This document shows positions 5,764-47,493 of a stretch of 64,000 nucleotides of DNA, in pieces (position 1 is the stretch's first letter; each line of letters begins with the position of its first letter). Below the pieces are notes generated by a model, which saw nothing but the letters and a program-made list of their open reading frames with translations, did not search any database and was not told the DNA's origin. A program made the translations under genes and the position numbers. This DNA is from Myxococcales bacterium (GTDB taxonomy: Bacteria > Myxococcota_A > UBA9042 > JABWCM01 > BTVJ01), in assembly GCA_045863395.1 (NCBI GenBank), contig BTVJ01000001.1, positions 66,406-130,405 of the forward strand, read 5' to 3'.

Positions 5764-5886
5764 GTGACCCTCCTGATCGCGACAAGGAGGCACCAGACGG
5801 CGCACGGCGTCAAGGGAACTCCGGCGCCGAGACCCGATCTGGGCGCGAGAGCACGCGTGCGGTAGCCTGGGAGTGATGGAGGCACC

Positions 5887-30000: not shown

Positions 30001-30589
30001 AAGGATCGCCGTCGTCGCACGCCAGCCCATCCTTCATGGCTCCGGTCTGGCACGCGCCGTCCTCGCAGCTCGCGGTCTGACAGGAGATGCCCTCCACCAG
30101 ATAGGCACAGTCGTCATCCTTGGAGCACTCGCTGGCGCCGGCGTCGAGGTCACCCCCCGTGTCGCCCTGAATGACCGTAACCTTGATGGACGCCCGCCCG
30201 GCGGTCCCACCGACGGCCTCACCGGCGTCGTCCACCACCTCGACTGCGATGGTGTGCGCCCCGAGGGGCACCGCAGTGAAGGTGAACCCGTCCCCCTCGA
30301 AGATGCGGCCCTTCTCCTTGCCGTCCAGCGTCATGGTGAGAACGTTGCCGAACTCCGACAGCTCGATGCCTTCCACCTCCACCTTGACGACGATGTCGGC
30401 GTCGAAGCCCGGAGTCTCGATGACCGCGCCATCGGTGGGCGACGCGATGGTGAGGCGTAGCTCGGTGCCGCCAGCGTCCTTGGCTCCACCGAACCCGGAG
30501 AAGGGCGGGAGCTTGGATGCCTCCACGCACCCCAAGGCGAGGGGCACGAGCGCGGCCAGGAGCCACTGAACCGAGCGGGTCACCGTCAT
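27017..30589 (-). CDS. Giant secreted Myxococcus-type cysteine-rich repeat lipoprotein (1190 aa), with an N-terminal Ig-like domain and a ~160-aa C-terminal domain shared with four neighbouring genes.
   Basis: ATG 30589 with GGAGG 6 nt upstream. Lipobox LALGCVEAS. More than 25 CxDDGNPCTxDxC repeats. Block of [18 protein letters not shown]../CGNDFLDPGEECDDGN motifs. C-terminal domain contains ..[42 protein letters not shown]. Confidence 0.8.
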   Translation of the reverse strand: MTVTRSVQWLLAALVPLALGCVEASKLPPFSGFGGAKDAGGTELRLTIASPTDGAVIETPGFDADIVVKVEVEGIELSEFGNVLTMTLDGKEKGRIFEGDGFTFTAVPLGAHTIAVEVVDDAGEAVGGTAGRASIKVTVIQGDTGGDLDAGASECSKDDDCAYLVEGISCQTASCEDGACQTGAMKDGLACDDGDPCTIEDECDGGGCQGVQDDCEDDNPCTTDTCDKKKGCRNNPNTKACDDGDPCTLGDVCSQGACKGQGLLGCDDGDACTTDACDPGSGGCVSLPAVLDCDDDNECTDDACNPDDGTCAHVPAAGNCFDGNLCTDDACDPETGSCAFTPVALDCDDGSLCTNDGCDPLTGECTSALKPLFCNDGDGCTDVSCDPLTGGCLYTPVAIDCNDGDPCTTDACDPKTGGCLNTPIAVNCDDGNVCTKDTCDTGSPGGCKHEPNAGACDDADACTYNDVCAAGACKGTLINCGDGDPCTVDSCAGGSCLNEPTAGACDDGNACTENDSCAGGACVGTTKACDDGDVCTTDTCAPATGCKHTPNTLPCDDGDSCTTGDACKDGACLPKGVNTCDDKNPCTSDLCNALTGTCINQPVEGPCSDGDGCTEGDSCDSGACVPGSLKDCEDANPCTTDFCTGGGCGHSFNSAPCDDGDPCTANDKCAGGTCTPGAPLVCDDGDPCNGVEVCNIASGGCELDGPAPYCGDGTTDWACGEVCDDDNQDGGDGCSADCTSDESCGNDFLDPGEECDDGNKDPLDGCDADCKEESAECTVDGDCDDLSVCTGTEKCNAGACAKGTPLVCSDGIPCTQDGCNPQTGCTFTPNNASCTDGIACTLDTCDPVSGCVFSPTDAACNDGILCTADSCVQGFGCKHVADHGVCEDGNPCTANTCSTLSGCVSTAAAGGTPCDDGNPCTEGDGCNGTACKPGGPKACDDGIPCTLDSCGIGGQCLHAPQNAACDDGNPCTVDSCAEVAGCSHAPSSGVPCDDGDECTLDDSCEAGQCAGGTLNPSCSTTFCTVFGVKGATVDCSLRIARASEAEPVPTGLEFTLSYDTAALTLDNFYSRWCFGPNCFDVPATGAGSTSLQSGHSVSIAPTKIADWSGFGGVIIVNAGDPTSPLSTAWLDEQGEVVGNPVFLTVRFVLAADIDEGAPASVDLDVSVATDGIAQSLVADLIKGIIITWLL

Positions 30590-30852: not shown

Positions 30853-32835
30853 CTAGGGCTCACCGCTCACGATGATCCCGCCGGTCACGGTCACAGGGAG
30901 GGAGAATGCGTCCGCGTCGGCCGCGGCGACGCCGTCCAATGTAACCAGAACGGGGGCCGACGCGGGAGCGGGGGAGAGGAGCTCGAAGCGCGCACGGAAG
31001 ACGACTGGATCGCCGACCAGCGCGCCCGCCTCGTTGTACCAGGCCTCGGTGAGGGGCGTGTGGGGAGCCCCGGGGTGCACGATGATGGCCGCGCCGCTGC
31101 CAGACCACCCCTCGAAGGTCGTCGGAGCAATGCTCACCTGGTGACCCGTGGAGAGGGGAAGGGCCCCCTGCCCCGCGACCACCTGGTCGAAGCAGCCCAC
31201 TCCCTCGAAGCACAGCTCGTCGAAGAACCCGATGATGCGGGCGCGCTCCTTCGGGTAGTCCATCACCAGCTCCAGCGCGGTGGCGGGAGGGGCGCCCGAG
31301 CTGACGGCCGCGAGGCGCACGGGGCAATCGATCTGATCGAGTGCATCCCCTGTCATGGCGCACGCGGCAGCGGCGATGGAGGTCGCGGCATCACCGACCA
31401 CGATCTTCTGCTCGGAGACCACGGCCGGGATCGACTCGGCCGCCGCGTTGGCCACCACCACGTTGGAGAGGGTCACCGGGTCCGTACCATCGACCTTCCG
31501 CTTGAAGACGGCCTGTACGAATTGCGGGTCTCCCTGGATGGTCCCCTCGGGATCCAAGTACGCATCGGAGATGGGCGCCGTGGGGTCCGAGATGTTGGCG
31601 ATCACCACCGAGCCCTTGCCCGCCCAGGCGGCGGCGTCGCCCGGCGACAAGCTCACCGAGTGTCCCGATGGCCACAGAGGAACAGGGGGCGTGGACATGA
31701 GCTGGCAGGGGCCCCCGATGCAGGACTCGTCCTCGAACCGAACGAACGCGATGCGGTTCGCGTCGTACAGCACGGTCATCTGGAGCGCGGCCGGTAGAGC
31801 GACGGATTGGCCGATTCGGACCAGGCGGAAGGGGCAGACGACCTCCGCGTCTGCCGCGCCCGTGACCAGACAGATGGGCTCGCCGAGCGGGGGAACACAC
31901 TCCGGGTCGGGTGTGCCGGAGCAGACCCCCTGCGAGCACACGTCTCCGAGGGAGCACGGGTCTCCGTCGTCGCACGGAGCCGTATTGGGAGTACCGACGC
32001 AGCCGCCGTCCACGCAGGCGTCATCCGTACATGGGTCATTGTCGTTGCAGGCCAGCGCGGGGCCAGGGGTGCAGATGGTGCCGGCGCAGGTCCCGCTGCC
32101 CGTGCAAGGGTTGCCGTCGTCACAAGGCTGCTCGTCCCGAACGACCAGCTCACAGGCGTCGCCGTTGCACGCCTCCAACTGGCACGGGCCAAGAACCGCG
32201 GGCGACACAAGCTTCCCGGTGCAGTCGGAGTCGGTCTTGCAGAGCAGGATGTTCTTCTGCTCGCACCGGTTGTTGGCGCACACCTCACCGTCTCCACACT
32301 CGGCGGCAGTGAGGCAGCAGCCTGCCACCGCCTCGTAGCTGCACAGCCCCTCCTCGCAGGCCTCTGTGCTGCACGGGTTCTTGTCCGCGCACTCCCCATC
32401 GGTGGTGCAGGCGGACACGACGGAGAACGTCACGGAGTCCTTGGAGCCGGAGCCCTCGTAGGCGCTCCCATCCCCCTTGACCGCCTGGGCCCCAAGGACG
32501 TGCAGCCCGGGCTCGGTGACAATGACGGTCCCCGTCAACGCGCGAAGGGTCATCGCGGAGGCACCGTCGAGGGACAGGGCGACGCCGTCGCCCCCGGCCG
32601 CAAGGGAGATGCCCTGGACCTCCAAGACCACCGGGACGCCAGCGGCGGCGACCGACAGCTCGAAGGCCTCGTCGTCCATCGGTCGGACGAAGGAGACGAC
32701 CACCGAGCTGGCGCTCGTGGCGTCCCCCGCGTCGGCCGAATCGGAGACCGTTGCGTCAGAGCAGCCGGTCAGGGCGACGCACCCGAAAAGTATGGCGACC
32801 AGGTGTCGCCGCCCGGACCAAAGCGGGTCGCGCAT
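30853..32835 (-). CDS. Secreted Cys-rich repeat lipoprotein (660 aa): Ig-like N-domain, a few Cys repeats, then two tandem copies of the shared ~160-aa C-terminal domain.
   Basis: True start is ATG 32835 (MRDPLWSGRRHLVAILFGCVALTGC, lipobox). It overlaps the upstream stop (TGATG). The ORF-track N-terminal extension to 33183 is Arg-rich junk. Two domain copies contain SGHSVSLSP..GKGSVVIANISDPTAPI and STGHQVSIAPT..GSGAAIIVHPGAPHTPL. Confidence 0.75.
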   Translation of the reverse strand: MRDPLWSGRRHLVAILFGCVALTGCSDATVSDSADAGDATSASSVVVSFVRPMDDEAFELSVAAAGVPVVLEVQGISLAAGGDGVALSLDGASAMTLRALTGTVIVTEPGLHVLGAQAVKGDGSAYEGSGSKDSVTFSVVSACTTDGECADKNPCSTEACEEGLCSYEAVAGCCLTAAECGDGEVCANNRCEQKNILLCKTDSDCTGKLVSPAVLGPCQLEACNGDACELVVRDEQPCDDGNPCTGSGTCAGTICTPGPALACNDNDPCTDDACVDGGCVGTPNTAPCDDGDPCSLGDVCSQGVCSGTPDPECVPPLGEPICLVTGAADAEVVCPFRLVRIGQSVALPAALQMTVLYDANRIAFVRFEDESCIGGPCQLMSTPPVPLWPSGHSVSLSPGDAAAWAGKGSVVIANISDPTAPISDAYLDPEGTIQGDPQFVQAVFKRKVDGTDPVTLSNVVVANAAAESIPAVVSEQKIVVGDAATSIAAAACAMTGDALDQIDCPVRLAAVSSGAPPATALELVMDYPKERARIIGFFDELCFEGVGCFDQVVAGQGALPLSTGHQVSIAPTTFEGWSGSGAAIIVHPGAPHTPLTEAWYNEAGALVGDPVVFRARFELLSPAPASAPVLVTLDGVAAADADAFSLPVTVTGGIIVSGEP

Positions 32836-35800
32836 CACGGCGAGGTCTTGATCACAAGGTTGAGGATCTCCACCGGCAGACCGGTCGCAGACGCGTCGGA
32901 GGCGACCACGTTGTCCATCGTCACCTCGACCGGCGTTGACGCGGACACGGCCTCCGCCAGGGTGAACACCGCGGTGAACACGATGTCGTCGTCCACGACG
33001 ACCCCGTTGTCGAAGTACCCCGTGGCCAGCGGTGCCGTCGGATCGCTGGAGTTGGAGAGAACCACCGACCCGCCGGTCACCCAGCTCCCGAGGGCGGGGC
33101 TCAGCGACACCGCGTGACCCGACTGGAGCGAGGAGAAGTTGGTCGGGATGTCCCACGGAACGCAGACGGTCGGGACGAAGCACTTCTCTCCGTCATTGAA
33201 GTGGCTGATGACCGCCTTCGTGCCGTCGTAGTGCATGTTGAACTGGAGCGCCGTCGGGACGGGGGCACCAATCGACGAGCGGGCCAGGCGAATCGGGCAC
33301 TCCACGGTCTCGCCCTGGTCGCCGGAGAGCAGGCACGTCAGTCCGGCCTGGGGATCCGTACAGGCCTCGTAGGTCGGGCCAGAGCACACCCCGCCCGTGC
33401 ACGCGTCGGGTACCGTGCACTGCTCACCGTCGTCGCACGGAGCCCCGTCGGCGGCCGCGACGCCGCACAGGCCCGTCGCCGGGTTGCATGCGTCCACCGT
33501 GCAGGGATCACCGTCGTCGGCGCATGTGGTGGTCGTCCCACCGCCGCAGGTGCCGCCAACGCACGTCGTGCCGGTCGTACAGGGGTTGCCGTCGTCGCAG
33601 GCTCCGCCGTCAGCCGTCGGAAGCCCGCAGGAACCGGTGAGCGGGTTGCAGACGTCCTGGGTGCAAGCGCTGCCATCGTCCGCGCATGTCACCGCGCTGC
33701 CCACGCAGGCGCCGCCAGAGCAGGCATCACCCGTCGTGCAGAGGTCGCCGTCGTCGCAGCTCGTCCCCGAGGCGTTGGCTGCGACGCACGCTCCGGCAAA
33801 GCACACGTCACCCGTCGTGCATGCGTCACCATCGTCGCAGAGGGTGCCATCGGGCGCCAGAACGCCGCACAGCCCAGTGACCGCGTCGCACAGGTCGAGG
33901 ACGCACGGGTTGCCCTGGGGCTCGCAGGTGGCCCCAGCTCCGGTGCAGACACCGTTGAGACAGGCGTCACCCGAGGTGCAGGCCTCCCCGTCCGTGCAGG
34001 GATTCCCGTTCGCGGCGTTGAGGCCGCACGCTCCAGACACGGGATTGCACACGTCGACCGTGCAGGTGTTGTCGTCGGTCCCGCACGTGACGAGGCTCCC
34101 CGAGCAAACGCCGGCCGTGCAGGTCGTCAGGTTGGTGCACGGGCTCCCGTCCTCGCAGAGGGTCCCATCGACGAGGGCGACGCCGCATGCCCCGGTCTGC
34201 GGGTTGCAGACGTCGGTCGTGCAGGGGTTGCCATCGCTGCCACAGGACTTGGGAGTCCCACCGCACACCCCGCCCGTGCACATGTCGGCTGTGGTGCAGA
34301 GATCCCCGTCGCTGCAGGCGGTCCCATTGGCGACGGCCGAGCCCGAGCAGGTGCCCATCGAGCAGGTGTCACCGGCGGTGCAGGCGTTCTCGTCGTCACA
34401 CGGCGAGCCGTTGGGGACCGCCAGGCCAGTGCATACGCCCTGCATGCACAGGTCGTTGCCGGAGCAGCCGTTCCCGTCGTCGCAGACTGTGCCGTCGGAG
34501 ACCGTCTCCGACACGCACACGCCGTCGAGGCAGGAGTCGGTCGTGCACGGGTTCCCGTCATCACAGGCGGAGCCGTTGGCTGCGGGCACGCCGCACTGAC
34601 CCTGCTCGTTGCAGGAGTCCAGGGTGCAGGGGTTGTCGTCGTCCGGACAGATCACGGGCGCCGCCGAGCAGGTACCGCCGATGCACTGATCGGCGATGGT
34701 GCATGAGTCACCATCGCTGCACGCGGTCCCGTCGGTGACGGGCACGCCACACACACCCGTACCCGCGTCGCAGGTATCGGCCGTACAGGGATTGCCGTCA
34801 TCGGCGCAGCCCACCACGGCGCCAGCGCAGACCCCGGCGACGCAGACGTCACCGGTCGAGCAGGCCGCGGCATCGTCGCAGGACGAACCGTCCTCCGCGA
34901 GCACGCCGCAGCCGCCCGTCGCAGGGTTGCAGACGTCGCTGGTGCACGGGTTGCCGTCGCTGGCACAGGTCTTCTCCAGGCCCACGCAGGTGCCGGCGGA
35001 GCAGGCGTCCGCGATGGTGCAGGAGTCCTCGTCGTCGCAGGCGGTCCCGTCGGCGAGCGCCGTGGCCTCGCACGTACCGCTGGCGCAGGAGCCGACACTG
35101 GACGTGCACGGGTTCCCATCGTCGCAGGTGGAGCCATCAGCGAGCGGGGTCCCCGCGCACAGGCCACCGGAGCACGTGTCGCCCGTGGTGCACGCCTCCT
35201 CGTCGTCGCACGAGGCGCCATCCTGGTTGCCCGTGACGGTGCAGGAACCTGCCTGGCACGCCTCGATGACGCACGGGCCACCCTCGTCGCAGGGCGTCCC
35301 GTTGACAACTGCTACGCCACACGCGCCACTCGATGGGTCGCAGGCATCCGTGGTGCACGGGTTCCCGTCATCGGCGCAGGTCTTGGGCGTGCCGCCACAG
35401 ACGCCGCCCGAGCAGGTGTCGAGCACCGTACACACATCGCCGTCGTCGCAGGCGATGCCGTCGGCGGCGGGAGCGCCGCAGACCCCCGTCCCCGGGTTGC
35501 AGACGTCAGACGTGCACGGGTCGCCGTCGTCGGCGCACGCGACGGGCGTGCCCTGGCAGGCGCCGGCCGCGCAGGCATCGCCGGTGGTGCAGGGGTTGCC
35601 GTCATCGCAGGCCGTGCCGTTTGCGGCGGGCAGCCCGCAGGCGCCGCTGCCGGTGTTGCAGGCCTCGACGGTACAAGGGTTGCTGTCGTCGGGGCACTCG
35701 GTCGCCGTACCGGCGCACTCCGCGGACACACAGGCGTCATTGACGGTGCACGCCGCCCCATCCGAGCAGACCGCCCCGTCCTCCACCGCGATGCCGCAGA

Positions 35801-38800
35801 GGCCAGACGCGGGATTGCAGGTGTCCGTCGTGCAGGCGTTCCCGTCACTGGAGCACGTCACCGCCACGGCCCCGCAGGCGCCACCCAGACAGACGTCGCT
35901 CACCGTGCACAGGTCACCGTCGCTGCACCCCGAGCCGTCGGGGAGACCCACTCCGCAGGTTCCGTTCGCCGGGTTGCACTGGTCGGTCGTGCATGGATTT
36001 GCGTCGTCGTCGCAGGTGACGGACGTGCCGGCGCAGGTCCCCCCGGAGCACGCGTCCAGGTAGGTGCAGGTGCTCCCGTCTGAGCATGGGCTACCGTTGG
36101 TGACAGCCACCCCGCAGGCTCCGGTCGCCCCATTGCAGACATCGTCCGTGCATGGGTTGCCGTCGTTGGCGCAGGACTTGAGCGTCCCGGTGCAGGCCCC
36201 TGCCACGCACGCATCGGCGACGGTACACAGGTCCCCGTCGTCGCAGCTCGTGCCGTTGGGAACCGCCTGGCCGACGCAGGCTCCACCCACGCACGCATCG
36301 TTGAGGGTGCACGTGTCGCCGTCATCACACCCGCCTGCGTAGAGCGGGGTGCCGAGGCAGGACCCGCCAAGGCATTGATCGCCGCTGGTGCAGGCGTTGT
36401 CGTCGTCGCAGCCCGCACCATCGGGCCCTGGGGCCTCGAAAGCGCAGATGCCGGCAGAGCAGGACCACGTGGAGCAGGAGTCACCCCCGGCGCAGGGGGT
36501 CAGCTCTGCTACGGGGACCCCGCAGGTGCCGGTGGCGGGGTTGCAGGCGTCGGTCGTGCACTCGTTGCCGTCGTCGCCGCACACGACCGCGACGCCATTG
36601 CAGGTGCCAGCGACGCAGGCGTCGCCGCTCGTGCATGCATTGGAGTCGTTGCACGACGTACCGTTGGGCCTCGCCACGCCGCACGCGCCCGTCGCCGCGT
36701 CGCAGACGTCGTCTGTGCAGGGGTTGCCGTCATTGGCGCAGCTCTTGGGCGCGCCGCCGCACGTGCCCGCAACGCACAGATCGCCTACCGTGCACAGATC
36801 TCCGTCATCGCACGCCGTGCCGTCTTCCACCGCGACACCGCACAGGCCGGTCACCGAGTCGCACACGTCCGTCGTGCATGCGTTGCCGTCGTCGCCGCAG
36901 GTCTTGGGAGCGCCCGAGCAAGTGCCGGAGGAGCATGTGTCTCCCAACGTGCAGGCGTCTCCGTCACTACACACGGTGCCGTTGGGGACCACCGTGCCGG
37001 CGCAGGCACCCGCGACGCAGGTGTCGTTGATGGTGCAGGGGTTGCCGTCATCGCACGAGCCCAGGATGGGCGCGCCGGGCTGGCAGGCGCCGCCCTGGCA
37101 CGTGTCACCGCCCGTGCAGGCGTCCCCGTCGCTGCAGGGAGCGCCATTCGCGAGCGGCGCGCCGACGCACACCCCCGCCTGGCAAGCGTCCGTCGTGCAG
37201 GTGTTGCCGTCGTCACAGCTCGTACCGTTCGGCAGCGCCACGCCGCACGCCCCCGTCGCGGGGTTGCACGCGTCCTGGGTGCAGGAGTTTCCGTCGTCGC
37301 CGCAGGTCTTCAGCGTCCCGGAGCAGACCCCGGCCTGGCACAGGTCATTCAGGGTGCACGGGTTCCCGTCATCGCAGGCCGTCCCGTTCGAGCCGGGCGC
37401 AGTGCAGTCCCCCGGCACACACGACGCCGTACACTCGGCCGAGCAACCCGCTTCGGCGCCGCCACAGGACCCCGAGCTGCACGCATCCAGGTACGTGCAG
37501 ATCTCGCCGTCGTCACAGGCCGTCCCGTCGGCGGCCGCAACGCCGCAGGCGCCGGTCATCGGGTTGCAGGCGTCCACGGTGCAGCCGTTGCCATCGTCTG
37601 CGCAGGTCTTGGGCGTGCCGAGGCAGGCGCCGCCCAAGCACTGGTCGCCAGTCGTGCACAGGTCTCCGTCGGTGCAGGACGTCCCGTTGGACACCACGGT
37701 ACCGGCGCAGGCGCCGCCCGAGCACACGTCACCCGCGGTGCAAGGGTTGCCGTCGTCGCAGGGGTTACCGTTGCCAACGCCCGTACCGATGCACGCGCCC
37801 CCGGCGCACATGTCGCCCGTCGTGCAGGCGTCGCCGTCATCGCAGGACGTCCCGTTCGCCAGGGGCGTGCTGATGCAGACACCACCGACGCACGCATCTG
37901 CCGTGCACGGGTTGCCGTCGTCACAAGGACCGCCGTTCGGCACCGGGAGCCCACAGGTCCCTCCCTGGCAGGTCTGGGACGTGCACGCGTCGCCGTCGTC
38001 AGGACAGATCACCGCCAGGCCGCCGCAGGTGCCGCCGGTGCAGGCGTCGCTGGACGTACACAGATCCCCATCGTCGCAGGTCGTGCCGTTGGGAGCCGGG
38101 GCCCCGCAGGAGCCGCTGACGCAGGCGTCAACCGTGCACGGGTCGCCATCGGGGGCACAGAAGACCGAGCCACCCTGACACGCTCCGCTGAGGCACACGT
38201 CGCCCGTGGTGCACGCGTCCCCATCGCTGCAAGATGAGCCATCCCCGGCCCACTGCCCGCATGACCCGGTCGACGCATTGCAGACATCTACTGTGCATGG
38301 GTTGCCGTCGTCTGCGCAGGTGAGGATCACGCCGCCACAGCTCCCGCCTTGGCACTGGTCGCTGTGAGTGCAAGCGTCCCCGTCGTTGCAGGACGCGCCA
38401 TTGGGCAGAGTTGCGCCGCCCCCACAGGTGCCGCCAGTGCAGAGCTCGCCCACGGTGCAGGAGTTGGAGTCGTCGCAGGGGGAGCCGTCGGGGACACCCG
38501 AGCCACCGCCACAGACGCCCGCCGTGCAGGTCTCTCCCGTGGTACACAGGTTGTCGTCGTCACACGGAGATCCGTTGGCGACGGGTGCGCCGACGCACAC
38601 GCCGTTGGAGCAGGAGTCCGCGGTGCATGCGTCGCCATCGTCGCAGGCCGTGCCGTTGGCAGCCGGCGGGTAGCACTCTCCGGTCGCCGGATCGCACTCG
38701 TCTGCCGTGCACTCGTGCCCGTCGTCGGCGCAGGTCTTCGGGGCACCACCACACACCCCGGCGGTGCACACGTCCGCGACGGTGCACTGGTCGCCGTCGT

Positions 38801-41354
38801 CACAGGCGGTACCGTTCGGCACCGCCACGCCGCACGCTCCCGTGGCGAGGTCGCACACGTCCACGGTGCAGGGATCGCCGTCGCTGGCACAGGTCACTGC
38901 GGTCCCGGCGCACACGCCTGCGGAGCAGGTGTCTCCAGACGTACAGACATTGCCGTCGTCGCACGCCGCACCCTCCGCAGCCGGCGCCCCACAGGTACCG
39001 GTCGCCCCGTTGCAGATGTCGCTCGTGCAAGGGTTACCGTCGTCACCGCAGGTGACAGGGGTCCCGGCGCAAGCGCCGGCGCTGCACGCATCCCCCGTGG
39101 TGCAGAGGTTGGCGTCGCTGCATACGGTCCCGTTCGGAAGCGCGAGTCCGCAGCCGCCTGTCGCGGGATCACAGACGTCGCTGGTGCAGGGGTTGCCGTC
39201 GTCCGCGCACGCCTTGGGGGCACCATGGCAGGCGCCAGCCTGACACACGTCGGACACGGTGCAGACATCACCGTCGCTGCACGCCGTGCCGTTGGCAACG
39301 GCTGTGCCAGCGCAGGATCCGCCGGTGCAGGCGTCTCCTGCGGTGCAGGGGTTGCCGTCGTCGCAAGCGCCGCCCTCACCGACCCCAGCACCCGCACACA
39401 CGCCGGCCGTGCAGGCGTCGTTCGCCGTGCAGGCATCACCGTCGTTGCAGGTGGAGCCATTCGGGAGCGCCGTGCCAGCGCACACGCCAGCGCCGCACAC
39501 GTCGAGGGCCGTGCAGGAGTTGCCGTCGTCACAGGAGGTCCCGTTGGGCGCCGGCACACCACAGGCGCCCGTGGCCGGATTGCACAGGTCGAGGGTGCAC
39601 GGATCGCCGTCAGACCCGCAGCCGAGAGCAACGCCCTGGCACACCCCAGCGTTGCACACGTCATTGACCGTGCAGAGGTTCCCGTCGTCGCAGAGGGCCC
39701 CGTTCAGGGCCGTGACGCCACATGCGCCGGTCTGCGCGTCGCAGGCGTCCGCGGTGCAGGGGTTGCCGTCATCGCCGCACGTCGCCGGGATGCCCTGGCA
39801 CGCGCCTCCGATGCACACGTCTCCCGAGGTACAGGCGTCCGCGTCCGTGCAGGTCGTCCCGTCCCCGGCCGCTACACCGCAGGCTCCGGTGTCCGGGTTG
39901 CACACGTCAGTGGTGCAGGCGTTGCCGTCGCTGGGGCAGGACTTTGCGGTACCGGCGCAAGCTCCAGCGGTGCACAGGTCGAGGACGGTGCAGAGGTCTC
40001 CGTCGTCGCAGGCCGTGCCGTTGACCACGGGCGAGCCAGCACAGAGGCCGGACTGGCACACGTCCCCCTGCGTGCACCCGTTGTCGTCGTCGCACGGAGT
40101 CCCGTTGGGGTTCACCCCACCGCCACTGCACGTGCCAGCCTGGCAGGTGTCGGTGGTCGTGCACGAGTTGCCGTCGTCGCAGGACGTCCCGTTCGCCACC
40201 GGCGCACCCGCGCACCCCCCGGCGCCGCACGCGTCGCTGGCAGTGCACGGGTTGTCGTCATCGCAGAGCGTCCCCGGCGCGGCGGCCCCCCCGCACGCGC
40301 CGGTCACGGCGTCGCAGGCGTCAACTGTGCACGGATCCCCATCGTCCGGGCAGGACTTCGGAACACCGGCGCACGCGCCCGCAGTGCAGGAGGTGAGCAG
40401 CGTACAGGGGTCACCGTCGTCGCACGCAGTGCCGTCCGCAGCTACCGAATTGCAGGCGCCCGTCGCCGGGTTGCACGTGTCCTGGGTGCAGGGGTCACCG
40501 TCATCGGAGCAGGTGGTCAGGGCGCCCACACACGCGCCGACCTGGCAGGTGTCGCCCGTGGTGCAGAGGTCCCCATCGTCACAGCCGGTCCCATTCGCAA
40601 ACGGGAAGCCGCACGTACCACTGGCGGGGTTGCACGCATCCAAGGTGCAGGGGTTCCCGTCGTCAGCGCACTGGACCTCGACGGCCTGACAGGTTCCGCC
40701 GACGCAGGTGTCCCCGGTCGTGCAGGTGTCGCCATCGTCGCAGGTCGCGCCCGACAGAGAGACCCACCCGGTGGGGTTGGTCCCCGGCACACACTTCTCG
40801 CAGGTGTTCGTTGGGTTCAGCGCATCAGCCGCGACGCAGTCGCCACCGATGGCGCAGCCGCCAGGACACGAGCAGGCGTTGATGGCGGTCGGGAAGGACA
40901 AGGGATCCAGCGGATCGGTCCCATTGGCGATCTCGCAGGTGTCCGGGTAGGTGTCCCCGTCATCGTCCTCGTCGCAGCCGTTGTGGAGGTCGTCCCGGTC
41001 CGGGTCCGCGACCGCGATGAGCCCGTTGATCCCCTCATCTGAGCTCAGCTTGTAGAGGCGCAGCAGGATGATGCGCTGGACGTCCGTGACGTCCAGCTTG
41101 CCGTCGCACTGAAGATCCGCGTCCGCGTCGCTCACCGCCTGGCAGACGGGATTGGGATCCCCCTGGGCCTGCGTCAGAACAGCGCCGATGTAGCAGTTGA
41201 TGTCGGCGACGTTGACCAGCTCGTCGAGGTTGATGTCTCCCGAGTGGAGAGGGAGCGGGGCCGCAGAAGCCGTCCCTACGCCGAGGGTCCCCGCCAGGAT
41301 CGCCGCCGCGGCGAGTGCCCTCCCCCACGTTGAACACCCACCGTCGGAGCTCAT
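32835..41354 (-). CDS. Giant (2839 aa) secreted repeat protein: signal peptide, dockerin-like Ca-binding pair, about 70 tandem 36-aa Cys repeats, then the shared C-terminal domain.
   Basis: ATG 41354 with GGGAGG 7 nt upstream. ATGA overlap with the upstream gene. Signal MSSDGGCSTWGRALAAAAILAGTLGVGTASAAP. Repeats of the form [48 protein letters not shown]. C-terminus SGHAVSLSP..GGSVVLSNSSDPTAPL..LVIKTSP. Confidence 0.8.
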   Translation of the reverse strand: MSSDGGCSTWGRALAAAAILAGTLGVGTASAAPLPLHSGDINLDELVNVADINCYIGAVLTQAQGDPNPVCQAVSDADADLQCDGKLDVTDVQRIILLRLYKLSSDEGINGLIAVADPDRDDLHNGCDEDDDGDTYPDTCEIANGTDPLDPLSFPTAINACSCPGGCAIGGDCVAADALNPTNTCEKCVPGTNPTGWVSLSGATCDDGDTCTTGDTCVGGTCQAVEVQCADDGNPCTLDACNPASGTCGFPFANGTGCDDGDLCTTGDTCQVGACVGALTTCSDDGDPCTQDTCNPATGACNSVAADGTACDDGDPCTLLTSCTAGACAGVPKSCPDDGDPCTVDACDAVTGACGGAAAPGTLCDDDNPCTASDACGAGGCAGAPVANGTSCDDGNSCTTTDTCQAGTCSGGGVNPNGTPCDDDNGCTQGDVCQSGLCAGSPVVNGTACDDGDLCTVLDLCTAGACAGTAKSCPSDGNACTTDVCNPDTGACGVAAGDGTTCTDADACTSGDVCIGGACQGIPATCGDDGNPCTADACDAQTGACGVTALNGALCDDGNLCTVNDVCNAGVCQGVALGCGSDGDPCTLDLCNPATGACGVPAPNGTSCDDGNSCTALDVCGAGVCAGTALPNGSTCNDGDACTANDACTAGVCAGAGVGEGGACDDGNPCTAGDACTGGSCAGTAVANGTACSDGDVCTVSDVCQAGACHGAPKACADDGNPCTSDVCDPATGGCGLALPNGTVCSDANLCTTGDACSAGACAGTPVTCGDDGNPCTSDICNGATGTCGAPAAEGAACDDGNVCTSGDTCSAGVCAGTAVTCASDGDPCTVDVCDLATGACGVAVPNGTACDDGDQCTVADVCTAGVCGGAPKTCADDGHECTADECDPATGECYPPAANGTACDDGDACTADSCSNGVCVGAPVANGSPCDDDNLCTTGETCTAGVCGGGSGVPDGSPCDDSNSCTVGELCTGGTCGGGATLPNGASCNDGDACTHSDQCQGGSCGGVILTCADDGNPCTVDVCNASTGSCGQWAGDGSSCSDGDACTTGDVCLSGACQGGSVFCAPDGDPCTVDACVSGSCGAPAPNGTTCDDGDLCTSSDACTGGTCGGLAVICPDDGDACTSQTCQGGTCGLPVPNGGPCDDGNPCTADACVGGVCISTPLANGTSCDDGDACTTGDMCAGGACIGTGVGNGNPCDDGNPCTAGDVCSGGACAGTVVSNGTSCTDGDLCTTGDQCLGGACLGTPKTCADDGNGCTVDACNPMTGACGVAAADGTACDDGEICTYLDACSSGSCGGAEAGCSAECTASCVPGDCTAPGSNGTACDDGNPCTLNDLCQAGVCSGTLKTCGDDGNSCTQDACNPATGACGVALPNGTSCDDGNTCTTDACQAGVCVGAPLANGAPCSDGDACTGGDTCQGGACQPGAPILGSCDDGNPCTINDTCVAGACAGTVVPNGTVCSDGDACTLGDTCSSGTCSGAPKTCGDDGNACTTDVCDSVTGLCGVAVEDGTACDDGDLCTVGDLCVAGTCGGAPKSCANDGNPCTDDVCDAATGACGVARPNGTSCNDSNACTSGDACVAGTCNGVAVVCGDDGNECTTDACNPATGTCGVPVAELTPCAGGDSCSTWSCSAGICAFEAPGPDGAGCDDDNACTSGDQCLGGSCLGTPLYAGGCDDGDTCTLNDACVGGACVGQAVPNGTSCDDGDLCTVADACVAGACTGTLKSCANDGNPCTDDVCNGATGACGVAVTNGSPCSDGSTCTYLDACSGGTCAGTSVTCDDDANPCTTDQCNPANGTCGVGLPDGSGCSDGDLCTVSDVCLGGACGAVAVTCSSDGNACTTDTCNPASGLCGIAVEDGAVCSDGAACTVNDACVSAECAGTATECPDDSNPCTVEACNTGSGACGLPAANGTACDDGNPCTTGDACAAGACQGTPVACADDGDPCTSDVCNPGTGVCGAPAADGIACDDGDVCTVLDTCSGGVCGGTPKTCADDGNPCTTDACDPSSGACGVAVVNGTPCDEGGPCVIEACQAGSCTVTGNQDGASCDDEEACTTGDTCSGGLCAGTPLADGSTCDDGNPCTSSVGSCASGTCEATALADGTACDDEDSCTIADACSAGTCVGLEKTCASDGNPCTSDVCNPATGGCGVLAEDGSSCDDAAACSTGDVCVAGVCAGAVVGCADDGNPCTADTCDAGTGVCGVPVTDGTACSDGDSCTIADQCIGGTCSAAPVICPDDDNPCTLDSCNEQGQCGVPAANGSACDDGNPCTTDSCLDGVCVSETVSDGTVCDDGNGCSGNDLCMQGVCTGLAVPNGSPCDDENACTAGDTCSMGTCSGSAVANGTACSDGDLCTTADMCTGGVCGGTPKSCGSDGNPCTTDVCNPQTGACGVALVDGTLCEDGSPCTNLTTCTAGVCSGSLVTCGTDDNTCTVDVCNPVSGACGLNAANGNPCTDGEACTSGDACLNGVCTGAGATCEPQGNPCVLDLCDAVTGLCGVLAPDGTLCDDGDACTTGDVCFAGACVAANASGTSCDDGDLCTTGDACSGGACVGSAVTCADDGSACTQDVCNPLTGSCGLPTADGGACDDGNPCTTGTTCVGGTCGGGTTTTCADDGDPCTVDACNPATGLCGVAAADGAPCDDGEQCTVPDACTGGVCSGPTYEACTDPQAGLTCLLSGDQGETVECPIRLARSSIGAPVPTALQFNMHYDGTKAVISHFNDGEKCFVPTVCVPWDIPTNFSSLQSGHAVSLSPALGSWVTGGSVVLSNSSDPTAPLATGYFDNGVVVDDDIVFTAVFTLAEAVSASTPVEVTMDNVVASDASATGLPVEILNLVIKTSP
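33375..40772 (-). repeat. In-frame array of about 70 degenerate 108-bp (36-aa) Cys-rich repeat units inside the giant gene.
   Basis: Periodic recurrence of the CDDG[ND]xCT..D.C..(A/S/G/V)TG.CG motif across residues ~195-2660 of the 2839-aa product. Repeats are diverged at the DNA level, not identical. Confidence 0.7.
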
Positions 41355-42007
41355 CGGGCGCCTCCCGTCACGATGACGCCAGCCTCGGTCCTCGCCGGGA
41401 CTGCCGCCGCGTCCTGATCCGCCGCCACCAGCGCCGTCGCCGTCACGACGACGGGGGAGGACGCCGGCGCCTCACCGGAGAGCCGGAACCGTGCGGTGGC
41501 CACGACCGCGTCACCCTCGACCGCGCCGCTCCGAAGGACGGCCTGCGTGATCGGCGTCGTCGGGCTCGTGAAGTGGGCGATGACCAGCGACCCCTTGCCA
41601 GCCCAGGCCTCCGGCTGGTCCGGGCTCTGGAGCACGCTGTGCCCCGTGCGCGCGACGACCGGCTCCTCGGCAGTCAAACGACGCTCGGCGGCTCCGGCAT
41701 CGAACAGCCCGATGAAGGTGGCGCGGGCGCTGTCATACCCGAGCGTGAGCTGGAGCGCGCGAGCGGCGACCGTGTCCGGCACCGCGGCGAGGCGCACCGG
41801 GCAGGACACCACGGCGCCGGCCGCACCGGAGAGCTGACAGATGGCGGCGCCGGACAGGGGCGCCACAGCCGCAGGGCTCGTAGGAACGACGGCCTCCGTG
41901 GCCGTCGCCTCCGTGGGCTTCTCAGGCGCCTTGGTGGTCTGCTGGGTCCCCTCGCAGCCCACGATGGTGACGCCGAACACGAGAGACAGTGCGATGAGCT
42001 TCTTCAT
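41351..42007 (-). CDS. Small lipoprotein (218 aa) made up only of the ~160-aa domain shared by the four giant proteins.
   Basis: ATG 42007 with GGGAGG 5 nt upstream. Lipobox VTIVGCEG, then a Thr/Ala/Pro linker. Domain signature ..CPVRLAAV..ARTGHSVLQSPDQPEAWAGKGSLVIAHFTSPTTPI..VIVTGGAR. Its stop overlaps the giant gene's start. Confidence 0.7.
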   Translation of the reverse strand: MKKLIALSLVFGVTIVGCEGTQQTTKAPEKPTEATATEAVVPTSPAAVAPLSGAAICQLSGAAGAVVSCPVRLAAVPDTVAARALQLTLGYDSARATFIGLFDAGAAERRLTAEEPVVARTGHSVLQSPDQPEAWAGKGSLVIAHFTSPTTPITQAVLRSGAVEGDAVVATARFRLSGEAPASSPVVVTATALVAADQDAAAVPARTEAGVIVTGGAR

Positions 42008-42035: not shown

Positions 42036-45000
42036 CTACTGCGCCCAGGTGACGATGATTGCGTTGATGATCTCGGAGACCAGGGTGGCTGCCTGCCCGT
42101 CCGCGCTTACCAGGTTGGTCAGCTCCACCTGGGCCGGGTTGCCGGCCGCGACGTCGCTGAGGAGCTTGAACTTGACGCGCACCATCTCGGGTTCGCCCTC
42201 GATGGCGCCCGCCTCGATGTACGCGTTGCTCAACGGCACGGTGGGATCTGACGTGTTGACGATGACCACCGCTCCGGATCCCTTCCAGTCCGCTACCTTC
42301 GTTGGCGCGATGGACACGGAGTGCCCCGTCGAGAGCGGCGTCGAGCCAGGCCCGGTGACGGGTGTCTCGAAGCACCCGAAGCCCGGGAAGCACAGCTCGT
42401 CATAGAAGTTGTCGAGCTGAAGGACGGTCTCGTCGTAGTCCACCGCGAACTCGATGCCCGTCGCGGGCGGATCCGCCTCGGTCTCGCGCGCAACGCGAAC
42501 CGAGCAGGTGACGATCTCGCCCGTCGATCCTGACAGGTCGCAGACGAAGCCCGGCGGGGCCCCGCACCCGGGGTGGGGACCACCCGCAACGCAGACGCCG
42601 TCCTGGCACTGGTCGTCTTGGGTGCAGGGGTTGCCGTCGCTGCACGGGAGCGCGCTCAGCGGGATGTGGTAGCACCCGTCCAAGGCATCACAGGCATCTG
42701 CGGTGCACGCATTGCCATCGTCACAGAGCTGGTTCTCTGCCAGGTTGACGCACGTCCCCTGTGCCGTGCAGGAGTCGACGGTGCAGGCGATGCCGTCGTC
42801 ACAGTTCACCAGTGGCCCTGCGGTGCATTTGACCCCGGCGCACGTGTCGTTGGTGGTGCAGGGGTTCCCGTCGTCGCACGCAGCGCCCGGCGCCTTCACA
42901 TACTGCTGGCAGCCCGCCACCAGGTCGCAGATGTCGTCGGTGCAGGAGTTCCCGTCGCTGCACGCCAGATCGTCCGGCACGAACACGCACCCAAGGACCG
43001 GGTCGCAGGTGTTGAGCGTGCAGGCGACCCCATCTGCGCAGTTCAACGACGTCCCGGGCTTGCAGCCGCCCGCCACGCACTTCTCGATGCCGGTGCAGAC
43101 GCTGCCGTCGTCGCAGTCCGCGTCGGTGGTGCAGTCGAGGCTCTCGACCAGGCACTCGGGGCTGCACCCATCGTTGGGCAGCTCGTTGCCGTCATCGCAG
43201 TCCTCCCCGGGATCGGTGAAGCCGTTGCCGCACTCCTCGTTGGACGTGCACGACGCGTTGCACCCGTCGTCGGAGAGCTCGTTGCCGTCGTCGCAGGCCT
43301 CACCGGGGTCCACAAAGCCGTTGCCACACTCCTCGTTGGAGGTACACGACGCGTTGCAGCCGTCGCCGGAGTCGTTGTTGCCGTCGTCGCACACCTCGCC
43401 GCACGCGAGGTCCTCGGTGCCGTCGCCGCAGTAGGGCGCGTCACCGGCCTGACAATAGAGACTGCCGGCGTCGCAGGTCTCCGCCCCATTGCAGGGGTCC
43501 CCGTCATCGCAGAGGGCCGCGGCCGCCGGGATGCACCGATCCGTGGGCGCTGACACGATGAGGCCGTCCTGTACCCAAGTGTGCAGCTCCGCGCCCGCCG
43601 TGCTCCAGGACGTGACGTTGTGCAGGTAGACGAACACGGGCGCCTCGACCGGGATGTCGATCTTCGTCGACATATGGAGGGTGAGGATCTCCGGGTCGCC
43701 CTGGACGGCGCCACCGGCGAGCCACGCCTCCGTCAGTGGCGACGCGGGGTCGCTGACGTTGGCCAGATGCACGTCCACGTTGCCGAGCCAGTTCGCGGGG
43801 CTCGCGGGCGTCAAGCTCGCGGTGTGCCCGCTCGGAGAGAGCTTGTTCGGCGGAACCGCCGCAGCGACGCAGCTCGCCCCGAAGCACACGGTGTCGGTCA
43901 TGCCCTGCATCTTGAGGCTGGCCGACTCGAACTGGAGCACGAAGTGGAGGGTGCCGGGCAGTGGCGTCCCATCATCGAAGCGGGCGTGCTTGATCGGACA
44001 GGTGATCGACGTGCCCGTCGGCCCCGCCACGGCGCACAGGGCCGCTGCGTCCAACGCACAGCTCGGGAGGAGGGCGCCGGGGGTACAGGCGCCAGCCGCG
44101 CACACGTCGCCCTGGGTGCAGGGGTCCTTGTCGTCGCAGGGCGCAGTGTTGAACGCGGTCGTGCACGCGCCGGTGACCGCGTCGCATGCGTCGTCGGTGC
44201 AGGGATCCCCGTCGTTGCAGACCTTGGCGACGCCGCCACACGCCCCGTCCTTGCACGTGTCCTGGGAGGTGCACGCGTTGCCGTCGTTGCAGGGGGCGGT
44301 GTTGGGCGTGTAGATGCATGCGCCGTTCGTCGGGTTGCATGCGTCGTTCGTGCAGGGGTTGCCGTCGTCGCAGGCGGTCGAGGTCCCGGGCGTGCACTCC
44401 CCTGCGGAGCAGACGTCGTCGGTCGTGCAGGGGTCGTGGTCATCGCAGGGGGCCGTGTTGGGCGCCGTGGTGCACCCCCCGGTCGCAGGATCGCAGGAGT
44501 CGTCCGTACACGGATCGTCGTCGTCGCACACCACGAGGGGCACCCCGAAGCACGCACCCGTTGCAGGGTCGCAGGCCTCATCGGTGCAGGCGTCGCCGTC
44601 GTCGCAGAGGACCGCCGCGAGGTGGGCGCACGCCCCGGTCGCAGGATCGCAGGCGTCCGTGGTGCACAGGTTGCCGTCGTCGCAGTTCAGGGTGATGGGC
44701 GTGTTGGAGCAGTTGCCCGTCGCCGGGTTGCACGAATCGGTGGTGCAGAGGCTTCCGTCGTCGCAGTCCTTCTCGGGACCGGCCGTGCAGACGCCGGCCT
44801 GGCACGCGTCCCCCACGGTGCAGCCGTCCCCGTCGTCGCAGGCCAGGCCCGCGGCCGCATCGCTGAGCACGCACTGCCCGCTCGACGGGTTGCACGCCAC
44901 GGTCTTGCAGGCGGGCGGCGCCGCGCAGTCGACGATGGTCGCCGTGTCGAGCACGCAGGAGCCATCCTGGCACTTCAGGGTCCCGTTGCAGAGGTTGCCG

Positions 45001-45815
45001 TCCTCCTTCGAGGCGCAGTCGGCCGTCGTGTTGCACTCCCCGCAGATATCGGGGCCCGCCTTGCAGGCGCCCCCCTGGCACTGGTCGGGCCCCGTGCAGG
45101 CGTCGCCGTCGTCGCAGGCCGCCACGTTGTTCGTGTAGACGCACCCCAGGTCCGGGTTGCAGGCGTCGTCAGTGCAGCCATTGTCGTCGTTGCAGGCCTT
45201 GGGTTTGCCAGCGACGCACGCGCCGGCGTCGCAGTGGTCGTCCTCGGTGCAGGCGTCGCCGTCGTCGCACACCGTGGTGGTGGGCTCGTTCACGACCCGG
45301 CAGGTGCCCTCGTCCTTGTCACAAGACGCGGTCTGGCAGGGCCCCGACGCCTTGCTCGCACAGTCCGCGTCGGTGGTGCACTCCGGCGCATCTGCCTTCT
45401 TCTTGACGACGACGGTCACCTCGTCGACGTAGTCGGCGCCGTCAAAGGGCACGCCCTCACTGCGCAGGGCCTGCACCCCAAGAGTGTGGGATCCGAGCGG
45501 GACGGCGGCGAAGGTGTAGGTGTGGCCCGTCGCCAGCGTGGCCACCTCGACGCCGTCAAGGGACAGCGACAGCAGGGGCCCTCCGTCGGCCAGCTCCAGC
45601 CCGAGCACCTGGAGCTCGGCGACGATGTCGACGGTGTCGGTGGTGGTCTCGAAGACCTCCCCCGCCGAGGGAGAGAGGAAGGAGACGGAGACGGTGCCAC
45701 CGCCTGCGTCGGCGTCACTCGTGGTCTGCACCACCGAGTCGTCCGAACAGGCGGCGAGCGCCAGCAGCGCGCTCGCCCAAGCCGACATCCATGTCATCCT
45801 CGCCCGACCGATCAT
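42036..45815 (-). CDS. Giant secreted Cys-rich repeat lipoprotein (1259 aa): Ig-like N-domain, Cys repeats, one internal and one terminal copy of the shared C-terminal domain.
   Basis: True start is ATG 45815 ([26 protein letters not shown]) with GGGAGG 7 nt upstream. The ORF-track extension to 45980 has no RBS. Contains a [18 protein letters not shown]../[16 protein letters not shown] block. Terminal domain ..[41 protein letters not shown]. Confidence 0.75.
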
Positions 45816-46196
45816 GCGGTTCCTCCCGTTGGTGGCCAGCCACTGGCCGTTGCAGAGCCCCTGATCGACCACCAACGGCCGCCCTGGTGCTCTGCGCCCG
45901 ACGCGACACACCAGCAAGCCGGACCCGGGACAACCCTCGCGGGACTGCCGGTCCTGGTCGTCGGGCGAACGGACGCTCAATGCCGATCCCTAGCTCTGTT
46001 CGACCCTCCCAGTCAACGCCAAACATCCACGCGGCCATCGGGGGGGGAGGACGCTGTCACCCGTCCGAGGGCATCGATGGCGCTCCGGACCGCGGCCCAA
46101 GCGCACTTCAGCGTCAGGGGAATCCGTTGAGGCCCCCCCTGGTTTGTGCTACGGTCCGCGACCCTGGGCGGGAGCAACGGAAGTGATCGAGGGTTC

Positions 46197-46796: not shown

Positions 46797-46798
46797 CC

Positions 46799-47269: not shown

Positions 47270-47483
47270 CGACACCCTGCTCGAGCTGCTGGTCACCCCA
47301 CACACCCACGAGCGCCTCCGCCCGGGCACCCCCGCGGAGCTGCGCCAGGCCCAAGGGATGTGGGCAGAGCGCTCCCCGGAGCCCCTCCCGGCCATCCTCG
47401 TCACTGCGGATGGGTCCCGGGCCTGGCCGATCCTCGACGGCATCCCGGACCTCCTCTCCGAGCACGCCCTCACCCTGCGCTGA
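47262..47483 (+). CDS. Trm112-like (DUF343) small protein, Cys-less variant.
   Basis: TTG 47262 with GGAG 7 nt upstream. Overlaps the MauE 3' end by 8 nt. Pattern LLELLVTPHTHERL....AWPILDGIPDLLSEHA resembles Trm112/YcaR (LLEILxCP....YPIxDGIPxLL) with the Zn-Cys residues replaced. Confidence 0.45.
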   Translation: MSDDTLLELLVTPHTHERLRPGTPAELRQAQGMWAERSPEPLPAILVTADGSRAWPILDGIPDLLSEHALTLR

Positions 47484-47493
47484 GTCCGCCCCA

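Follow-up and report, generated by a model that had tools for sequence, protein, structure and literature searches.

What is the domain of about 160 residues that recurs in the giant proteins of one gene cluster of an uncultured Myxococcales bacterium, and what would the proteins that carry it build together? The window, that is, the whole stretch of 64,000 nucleotides that was analyzed, contains five adjacent genes that we call C, A, B, D, and E in their order from position 45815 down to 27017, and all the features described below lie on the minus strand. An HMM made from five copies of the domain and run over the six reading frames of the whole window confined it to this gene cluster, with independent E-values of 1e-34 to 5e-85, which is far beyond chance, so the reading of the copies as non-homologous was rejected. 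Seven homologous copies were found in the five genes, instead of the eight counted in the first-pass annotation, which had credited gene D with two internal copies besides a C-terminal one; D has just two, an internal and a C-terminal one.

The domain had been considered not assignable to a known family by eye, and the profile search does assign it: the copy of A matches Pfam Cohesin (PF00963) with 27.6 bits against a gathering score of 24.1 (E 3.7e-6, profile positions 8–134 of 139). Protein A is 100% identical to the NCBI entry ‘MAG: hypothetical protein AMXMBFR64_00690 [Myxococcales bacterium]’, and a precomputed PF00963 annotation is also present on the database protein identical to A. Other copies remain individually under the Pfam cut-off (20.2 bits for C and 14.4 bits for B), and we take the copies of C and B as cohesins as well because of their homology to A at the E-values of 1e-34 to 5e-85. 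The structural comparison proposed by the first-pass annotation, with Foldseek on a model of the AlphaFold type, came out positive: the AF2 model of the domain (pLDDT 95.1) adopts a beta-sandwich (jelly-roll) fold that matches solved cohesins on superposition, and its top ~50 matches in the PDB are all cohesins with a probability of 1.0, the best of them type I (6kgc, 5nrk, 2vn5, 1ohz), with the type II, type III, C. perfringens, and archaeal cohesins scoring just slightly under these. In a sequence search of the PDB with a seven-copy profile, the best matches were the cohesin chains 5nrm/5nrk, at a weak E-value of 0.035. By profile and predicted fold, the domain is a divergent cohesin carrying conserved cysteines, and since the subfamily profile retrieves just 377 cluster representatives among 1.84 billion proteins, it forms a separate clade. 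Over 232 copies from public data, conservation reaches 98–100% in the first Cys pair, 93–96% in the GH dipeptide, and 86% in the Trp. The motifs listed beforehand hold for the first Cys pair, YD, GH-VS--P, W-G-G, DPT-P, and the hydrophobic C-terminal strand, but not for the second Cys pair, which is absent in A and in all A orthologues. The conserved cysteines of the cohesins probably form disulfides.

In five of the seven copies, no more than a few residues separate the end of the domain from the end of the protein, as would be expected if the domain were a C-terminal sorting or secretion signal comparable to the T9SS C-terminal domain or to the MYXO-CTERM type. A T9SS-like domain would be a single and strictly C-terminal copy, however, and here internal copies exist in C and D, scaffoldin-like relatives carry tandem arrays of up to eight cohesins, the 218-aa protein A would be a signal with no cargo, and the fold and the profile both point to a cohesin; the explanation is very improbable, and the copies in internal or tandem position are in effect enough to refute it.

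In the cohesin–dockerin “plug and socket” pairing familiar from cellulosomes, cohesins are the receptor half; they are heterotypic docking modules that bind dockerins in a Ca-dependent manner. The simplest socket of the locus is gene A (41351..42007), whose translation agrees with the earlier description of a 218-aa protein in which a lipobox and a T/A/P linker precede a single copy of the domain: after the signal peptide and the lipobox read from the translation, MKKLIALSLVFGVTIVGC (TIVGC, with Cys18), there is a T/A/P/E-rich linker at about residues 19–52 and a cohesin at about residues 53–216 (41360..41854), and we propose that A may serve as a membrane-anchored socket. An A-like gene (P0006) lies on a contig of 1.1 kb where no downstream dockerin gene is visible, and it is uninformative.

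Genes C, D, and E encode longer lipoproteins, each of which has an Ig-like domain at the N-terminus, then Cys-rich repeats, and a cohesin at the C-terminus. Gene C (42036..45815; 1259 aa, lipobox LLALAAC) matches Pfam Dicty_CTDC, DUF4215, and weakly Cohesin, together with NCBIfam TIGR02232, and carries an internal cohesin (43548..44048; 108 bits with the five-copy HMM and 222 bits with the seven-copy HMM) besides the C-terminal one (42042..42557; 272 bits). Gene D (30853..32835; 660 aa, VALTGC), matched in length and start by its orthologue P0014, ends in two tandem cohesins, the first at 31396..31878 (116.7 and 204.9 bits with the five- and seven-copy models, respectively) and the second at 30859..31380 (256.8 bits). 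Gene E (27017..30589; 1190 aa, PLALGC), identical to P0034, matches Dicty_CTDC with an E-value of 3e-67 and has its cohesin at 27023..27541 (263.6 bits). The C-terminal cohesins of C, D, and E fall in one cluster (cluster 55), where 12 of 12 copies are C-terminal, none occurs in a dockerin protein, and seven of the eight full-length members are lipoproteins. Signal peptides and lipoboxes were called by eye and by regular expression with the pattern [LVI][ASTVI][GAS]C; on this basis, a lipoprotein signal opens four of the five proteins of the locus (A, C, D, and E), B has an ordinary signal peptide, and the lipobox is kept in the orthologues.

The candidate plug is in gene B (32835..41354), which encodes a secreted giant of 2839 aa with, in order, a Sec signal peptide, the dockerin, an acidic Cys/Asp-rich segment, about 2500 aa of Cys-rich repeats matching Pfam Dicty_CTDC, and a C-terminal cohesin (32838..33353; 233 bits). 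The dockerin (41046..41246, residues ~37–103) consists of two Ca-loop-plus-helix segments with three conserved cysteines, DINLDELVNVAD followed by INCYIGAVL and DLQCDGKLDVTD followed by VQRIILLRL, spaced by 40 residues. As the criterion for a segment, we used a 12-residue EF-hand-like loop with acidic or amide residues at positions 1, 3, 5, 9, and 12, and then a helix; in loop 2, position 3 is Gln. These two segments are the sole matches to the motif in all six frames of the window. Pfam Dockerin_1 (PF00404) is the top family for the module of B at 19.0 bits and for those of its orthologues at 20–21 bits, all below the cut-off of 22.9, with E-values of 4e-4 to 1.6e-3; the module of B shares, furthermore, 57% (E 6e-27) and 50% identity (E 2e-22) with two modules of the family that pass the Pfam cut-off with 26.2 and 34.0 bits, respectively. 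An HMM of the dockerin subfamily, which has three invariant cysteines, gives the B module 84–87 bits, and the subfamily profile retrieves PF00404-annotated proteins, with 10 short proteins returned; a homologue search with the N-terminus of B returned one fragment, and in the PDB, four of seven matches were dockerins, all seven of them weak. The AF2 model of the isolated module, made from a two-sequence alignment, places helices directly after each loop at low confidence (pLDDT 43.5), and since the quality of this model is too low for a fold search, the assignment of the N-terminal module of B as a probable dockerin rests on its sequence. The first-pass proposal of a docking module stands in its heterotypic version, favored by the cohesin match and by a putative dockerin in the next, coupled gene, while nothing supports a homotypic one; the alternative proposal of a cell-surface anchoring domain gives way to an anchoring assigned to the lipid and not to the domain.

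It could also be argued that these cohesin-fold domains are ligand-binding or adhesive tips on Cys-rich stalks, directed to the prey envelope, a polysaccharide, or the matrix, instead of receptors for dockerins, the EF-hand-like module of B being then merely a Ca-binding structural element; we consider this improbable. In the window and the related loci, the dockerins sit solely on the Cys-rich repeat giants, and according to Pfam none of the cluster proteins carries a glycoside hydrolase or a CBM.

The wider family indicates how anchors and plugs are distributed. These statistics cover the top 150 of the 377 cluster representatives, with many fragments among them. A dockerin is present in 29 of the ~155 family proteins examined, starting within the first 100 residues in 25 of 28, and among 125 family proteins starting with Met, 56 have a lipobox, 27 a dockerin, and none both (Fisher p = 6e-9), so the lipobox and the dockerin are mutually exclusive N-terminal devices across the family. 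Several relatives (P0010–P0012, P0016, and P0021) combine one dockerin with one to six cohesins per polypeptide, and the same MAG encodes a second dockerin-plus-cohesin protein (P0102), whose dockerin passes the Pfam cut-off. A scan of reference-genome contigs with a pattern taken from a four-sequence alignment gave 76 matches, none of which was confirmed by tblastn.

We propose, with a probability of about 0.65, that the locus encodes divergent, cysteine-bearing cohesins of a non-cellulosomal cohesin–dockerin assembly system on the cell envelope, with B preferably docking on A. Within this proposal, dockerin–cohesin binding is predicted from homology and gene context, and the pairing of the B dockerin with the A cohesin is its weakest step, preferred because translational coupling is conserved. 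The start of B overlaps the stop of A by 4 nt (ATGA), as the stop of B overlaps the start of D (TGATG), and the A/B overlap is found in the window and in L001–L006 and L009, that is, in every orthologous locus examined, persisting where the identity of A falls to 49–50%, which argues for stoichiometric co-production. Against this pairing step, and only this one, stands another wiring of the same chemistry, in which the B dockerin would bind either the cohesins at the stalk tips of C, D, and E or, in a head-to-tail polymer, the C-terminal cohesin of a second B molecule, with A serving a dockerin protein encoded elsewhere. Among the modules of the locus, conservation is highest in the dockerin (76–90% identity among orthologues vs. 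48–85% for the cohesins), and it is the C-terminal cohesin of B, the best conserved cohesin (80–85%), that keeps pace with it, the cohesin of A being the least conserved (50–78%); docking of a nearly invariant dockerin on a better-conserved cohesin, for example that at the C-terminus of B or those on the stalk tips of C, D, and E, therefore fits at least equally well. The clade of the B C-terminal cohesin (cluster 68; five of five copies C-terminal, no lipobox) occurs in dockerin-bearing proteins in three of three full-length members, the same genome has P0102 as another dockerin-plus-cohesin protein, and one locus (L010) has two such genes close to each other with no A-like gene between them. 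The A/B overlap kept in every orthologous locus speaks against this wiring, and so does the fact that, as a rule, a cellulosomal scaffoldin does not bind the dockerin that it carries itself; we regard it as a less likely competitor.

Returning to the preferred assembly with B on A, the N-terminal lipid would tether the exported lipoproteins to the membrane and leave their cohesin sockets displayed, with a short flexible linker beneath that of A and a long Cys-rich stalk carrying those of C, D, and E at its distal end. By inserting its Ca-binding dockerin into one of these lipoprotein cohesins, B would be held on the cell, and its own C-terminal cohesin may act as a further socket for another dockerin protein, for example P0102 of the same genome, which would allow a chain-like or hierarchical extension of a fibrillar surface layer. 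The window contains one dockerin for seven cohesins, and thus the plug is identified there for few of the sockets. Given that no carbohydrate-active enzymes were found among the cluster proteins, this would be a surface assembly system and not a cellulosome. A bolder and rather doubtful extension is that uncultured Myxococcota build on their outer membrane a modular fiber layer made wholly of cohesin–dockerin links, with lipoproteins as roots, dockerin–cohesin giants of 1,000–3,000 aa that polymerize head-to-tail or branch on multi-cohesin proteins, and family-specific disulfides locking both modules; if true, the cellulosome-type connector would have been put to a new use, building a structural assembly at the cell surface, for instance for prey contact or cell–cell cohesion, instead of an enzyme scaffold.

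With this model, five “hypothetical” giant surface proteins become a testable assembly of cohesin sockets and one dockerin plug, which gives a handle on the role of the enigmatic myxobacterial Cys-rich repeat giants and would extend cohesin–dockerin assembly to a diderm phylum with lipid anchoring in place of SLH or sortase. The system would be unusual in having cysteines in both the cohesin and the dockerin modules and structural cargo, the Cys-rich stalks, instead of enzymes. If the conserved cysteines form disulfides, orthogonal cohesin–dockerin pairs may suit designer scaffolds under oxidizing conditions.

Among known systems, the anchoring scaffoldins SdbA, OlpA, OlpB, and OlpC of Clostridium (Acetivibrio) thermocellum also join cohesins to a cell-surface anchor, but theirs consists of C-terminal SLH repeats for a Gram-positive wall, whereas here a diderm has a lipoprotein signal at the N-terminus instead; the SLH/sortase anchoring of cellulosomes has no counterpart, as Pfam finds neither SLH nor LPXTG on the cluster proteins, and the lipoboxes of A, C, D, and E would take over this role. 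The identity between those scaffoldins and the cohesins described here is just 11–21%, and the Cys pairs and the GH/W invariants are specific to the present family. Unlike in the C. thermocellum system, no CBM and no dockerin-bearing glycoside hydrolases were found by Pfam on the cluster proteins, and the cellulosome hallmarks, namely dockerin-bearing carbohydrate-active enzymes and a CBM-bearing scaffoldin, are missing from the window and the related loci. Like CipA of C. thermocellum and ScaA/ScaB of A. cellulolyticus, B and its relatives join one dockerin and one or more cohesins on a single polypeptide, allowing hierarchical assembly; in contrast to scaffoldins of that type, where the dockerin is C-terminal and the cohesins are separated by Pro/Thr linkers, the dockerin here has three invariant cysteines and is almost always N-terminal after the signal peptide (25 of 28), and the cohesins are spaced by long Cys-rich Dicty_CTDC/TIGR02232 repeats. 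The stalks of B, C, and E match the myxobacterial cysteine-rich acidic repeat families TIGR02232 (myxo_disulf_rpt), Dicty_CTDC, and DUF4215, models that cover just the repeats and leave aside the cohesins and dockerins at the ends, by which the proteins would be linked. Non-cellulosomal cohesins are known from Archaeoglobus fulgidus (2xdh), from the GH84/GH33 cohesin modules of Clostridium perfringens (2jh2, 2w1n, 2vo8), and from scaffoldin-like proteins of ANME archaea (PMC9012536), all of them in phyla other than Myxococcota, and non-cellulosomal archaeal cohesin–dockerin pairs have been experimentally verified (PMC9012536). In the literature searched, we found no account of this subfamily in Myxococcota, of its anchoring by a lipoprotein signal, or of its link to giant Cys-rich repeat proteins. 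Non-cellulosomal cohesin–dockerin systems as such are already recognized in many genomes, and what is new here is the cysteine-containing, lipid-anchored variant from uncultured Myxococcota.

The 218-aa lipoprotein encoded by gene A (41351..42007, minus strand) carries a divergent cohesin. As the first-pass annotation had described, and as the translated ORF confirms, it consists of a signal peptide ending in a lipobox (MKKLIALSLVFGVTIVGC, Cys18), a linker rich in T/A/P/E (approximately residues 19-52) and a single copy of a conserved domain of ~165 residues. That domain had been considered not assignable to a known family by eye, but it does belong to one, since it matches Pfam Cohesin (PF00963) over nearly the complete profile with 27.6 bits against a curated threshold of 24.1 (E 3.7e-6), and the precomputed database annotation of an identical protein (100%; AMXMBFR64_00690, a hypothetical protein of a Myxococcales bacterium MAG) is likewise Cohesin. 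An AlphaFold2 model of residues 51-218, built with a 12-sequence alignment, is all-beta with a pLDDT of 95.1 and a pTM of 0.88, and when this model was compared with the PDB by Foldseek, a route initially suggested for testing the domain against cohesin and other beta-sandwich folds, the best ~50 matches were all cohesins at probability 1.0, spanning types I and II, C. perfringens modules and the archaeal 2xdh. The sequence identity to solved cohesins is 9-21%, and a profile of the seven copies in the window, searched against 1.84 billion proteins, retrieves just 377 cluster representatives, the named members being from MAGs of uncultured "Myxococcales bacterium" and from JABWCM01 bins of the Myxococcota. 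Because of the Pfam match, the confident cohesin fold, the low identity and this restricted retrieval, the domain is a distinct, divergent cohesin subfamily.

The copies were sought with an HMM built from five of them against the six-frame translation of the window, and the search was repeated with a seven-copy model. The seven copies found are all encoded by the minus strand and have independent E-values between 1e-34 and 5e-85: one in A (41360-41854), the C-terminal cohesin of B (32838-33353), two in C (43548-44048 and 42042-42557), two in D (31396-31878 and 30859-31380) and the C-terminal cohesin of E (27023-27541); the six-frame search gave no further copy above noise. The eight copies claimed earlier were thus one too many, because D holds two in total. 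The other window copies align with that of A at 25-42% identity and have in common with it the first Cys pair, the GH motif, the W and several Pro and Gly residues. In 232 copies collected from public data, conservation is 98-100% for C57 and C69, 93-96% for G122-H123, 86% for W135 and 90% for a second Cys pair, which is absent from A and from every A orthologue. Among the motifs originally listed, the first Cys pair, GH and W hold for A, and the second Cys pair does not; apart from these small corrections to copy count and Cys pair, the repeated domain is real and non-random. In some relatives (the C-terminal copy of P0009, and P0017, P0026, P0030, P0048 and P0118), a Cys-rich insertion of 25-35 residues between the conserved W and the G.G.VVI strand splits the cohesin, which is why HMMER reports two half-domains there.

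Gene A belongs to a closely packed minus-strand cluster in a window of 70.5% G+C, in the order C (42036..45815, 1259 aa, lipobox), A, B (32835..41354, 2839 aa), D (30853..32835, 660 aa, lipobox) and E (27017..30589, 1190 aa, lipobox). The C stop and the A start are separated by 28 nt, A and B are translationally coupled through a 4-nt stop/start overlap (ATGA), and the B stop overlaps the D start as TGATG. An esterase-like gene (24720..27029, minus strand, 769 aa, weak match to Pfam Esterase, PF00756), without cohesin or dockerin, is probably co-transcribed with the cluster because its start overlaps the E stop by 13 nt. C, D and E also share a domain of ~100 aa directly after the lipobox (LSLDG… Y.F..VPLG.H.L.V.A…; 45400-45750, 32400-32750 and 30150-30520, minus strand), which opens the lipoprotein relatives P0009, P0017, P0024 and P0026 as well; it has no Pfam or NCBIfam match and is probably an Ig-like, membrane-proximal module. 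The many long plus-strand ORFs in 33114-41042 and 42573-46130 (up to 897 aa, SPSSQ/VHG-rich), antisense to the Cys-rich repeat genes, were rejected as genes, being shadow ORFs of high-GC repeats.

Protein B has, besides its C-terminal cohesin, a signal peptide (…GVGTASA|APLPLH) followed by an N-terminal module (41046..41246, minus strand) that we treat as a dockerin. Its two segments, DINLDELVNVAD-INCYIGAVL and DLQCDGKLDVTD-VQRIILLRL, are spaced by 40 residues and arranged as the duplicated "Ca loop plus helix" of dockerins, and a loose regular expression for one of them had no match elsewhere in the six frames of the 64 kb. Among Pfam families, Dockerin_1 gives the best match to the isolated 68-residue module of B and to those of two orthologues, scoring 19-21 bits where the cut-off is 22.9; dockerins make up four of seven weak PDB matches; and an AF2 model of the module alone, of low confidence (pLDDT 43.5), places helices directly after each loop. 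This direct evidence is sub-threshold and suggestive, and what appears decisive is the transitive evidence: the same module occurs in 29 of ~155 cohesin-subfamily proteins examined, two of these modules exceed the Pfam cut-off (P0102 with 26.2 bits, P0135 with 34.0 bits), and the B module shares 57% identity (E 6e-27) and 50% identity (E 2e-22) with them, respectively. The profile of this dockerin subfamily also finds short proteins with a precomputed PF00404 annotation. The subfamily has three invariant Cys, an odd number, in helix 1 (D[IV]xC), the linker (PxC) and loop 2 (DLxCD), and in a second subclass (…ACL.PPGDV…) another Cys, the fourth, lies just upstream. A Cys left unpaired might lock cohesin and dockerin together covalently.

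That the domain is a docking module, as had been proposed, is supported by its cohesin family membership together with the adjoining dockerin. In all orthologous loci recovered (L001-L006 and L009), an A orthologue overlaps the B orthologue that follows it by the same 4 nt, even where the identity of A falls to 49-50%, and the neighbourhood is syntenic (UvrA-like, DoxX and rhodanese genes, then C, A, B and D). Between loci, the dockerin is the best-conserved module, with 76-90% identity; the cohesins reach 48-85% and the B signal peptide 52-55%. Lipobox and dockerin are mutually exclusive: among 125 Met-starting family proteins, drawn from the best 150 of the 377 representatives, many of them fragments, 56 have a lipobox, 27 a dockerin, none both and 42 neither (Fisher p = 6e-9). 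Since no protein has both, and since 25 of 28 dockerins begin in the first 100 residues, where a lipid anchor would otherwise sit, the two look like alternative N-terminal holding devices. The cohesin clades show the same split. One clade unites the C-terminal cohesins of C, D and E (12/12 C-terminal, none in dockerin proteins, lipoproteins in 7/8 full-length members), the clade of the A cohesin consists of lipoproteins (6/6), and that of the B C-terminal cohesin contains solely non-lipoproteins, with a dockerin in 3/3 full-length members. Scaffoldin-like relatives have up to eight cohesins with Cys-rich repeats between them. The MAG of the window itself encodes a second dockerin-plus-cohesin protein, P0102. 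In locus L011, a 2008-aa protein (296-6322, plus strand) with a C-terminal dockerin of this subfamily, and with no Pfam match and no cohesin, is encoded directly upstream of P0012 (dockerin, LTD/lamin-tail domain and four cohesins) and would be an example of a dockerin-only partner.

Cohesin-dockerin pairs are Ca-dependent, of high affinity and type-specific. By analogy with them, lipoproteins A, C, D and E would be tethered by lipid and display their cohesins, B would be secreted and then retained by its dockerin plugging into one of these, and the distal cohesin of B could receive a further dockerin protein. The A/B coupling favours the A cohesin as the partner of the B dockerin; the pattern of conservation favours the C-terminal cohesin of B itself or the tips of C, D and E. 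Because the proteins are secreted, the conserved Cys of both modules may form stabilizing disulfides, in the cohesin between C57 and C69. Non-cellulosomal cohesin-dockerin pairs have been verified in archaea (summarized in PMC9012536).

Elsewhere in the window, the minus strand encodes a secreted 664-aa protein (14574-16568) with three Pfam Kazal_1 stretches, of protease-inhibitor type, followed by repeated D.DGDGC.D.C acidic Cys motifs, and three nearby envelope proteins, namely an IgGFc_binding-domain lipoprotein (7323-9365), a NamZ exo-beta-N-acetylmuramidase (13252-14514) and a CarboxypepD_reg-like lipoprotein (16724-18112; 30.1 bits, below the cut-off of 32.3). The plus strand encodes a rhodanese, a DoxX/MauE membrane protein and a UvrA-like protein of ~1800-2000 aa with duplicated ABC/UvrA domains (46146-52818), a block whose synteny with the cohesin cluster extends to L001, L005 and L009, as well as a 750-aa Glu/Ala/Arg/Gln-rich, probably coiled-coil protein (55858-58110) with long tandem AAQREAE(E/Q) and ERQAA repeats.

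The system is not a cellulosome, given that the cluster proteins yielded no Pfam match to a CBM, a glycoside hydrolase, SLH or a sortase signal and that the sole dockerin cargo seen is a Cys-rich repeat stalk (Dicty_CTDC / TIGR02232). The cohesin family is already known, and so are non-cellulosomal cohesin-dockerin systems, among them ANME proteins that combine a dockerin with as many as five cohesins (PMC9012536); a preprint on Omnitrophota giant genes mentions dockerin-like folds, but in another context, and our literature search found no description of this Myxococcota cohesin subfamily. What is new is a Cys-containing version with lipoprotein anchoring and N-terminal dockerins, associated with giant surface proteins, rich in Cys, of uncultured Myxococcota. 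It would work like the anchoring scaffoldin of a cellulosome together with a primary or adaptor scaffoldin.
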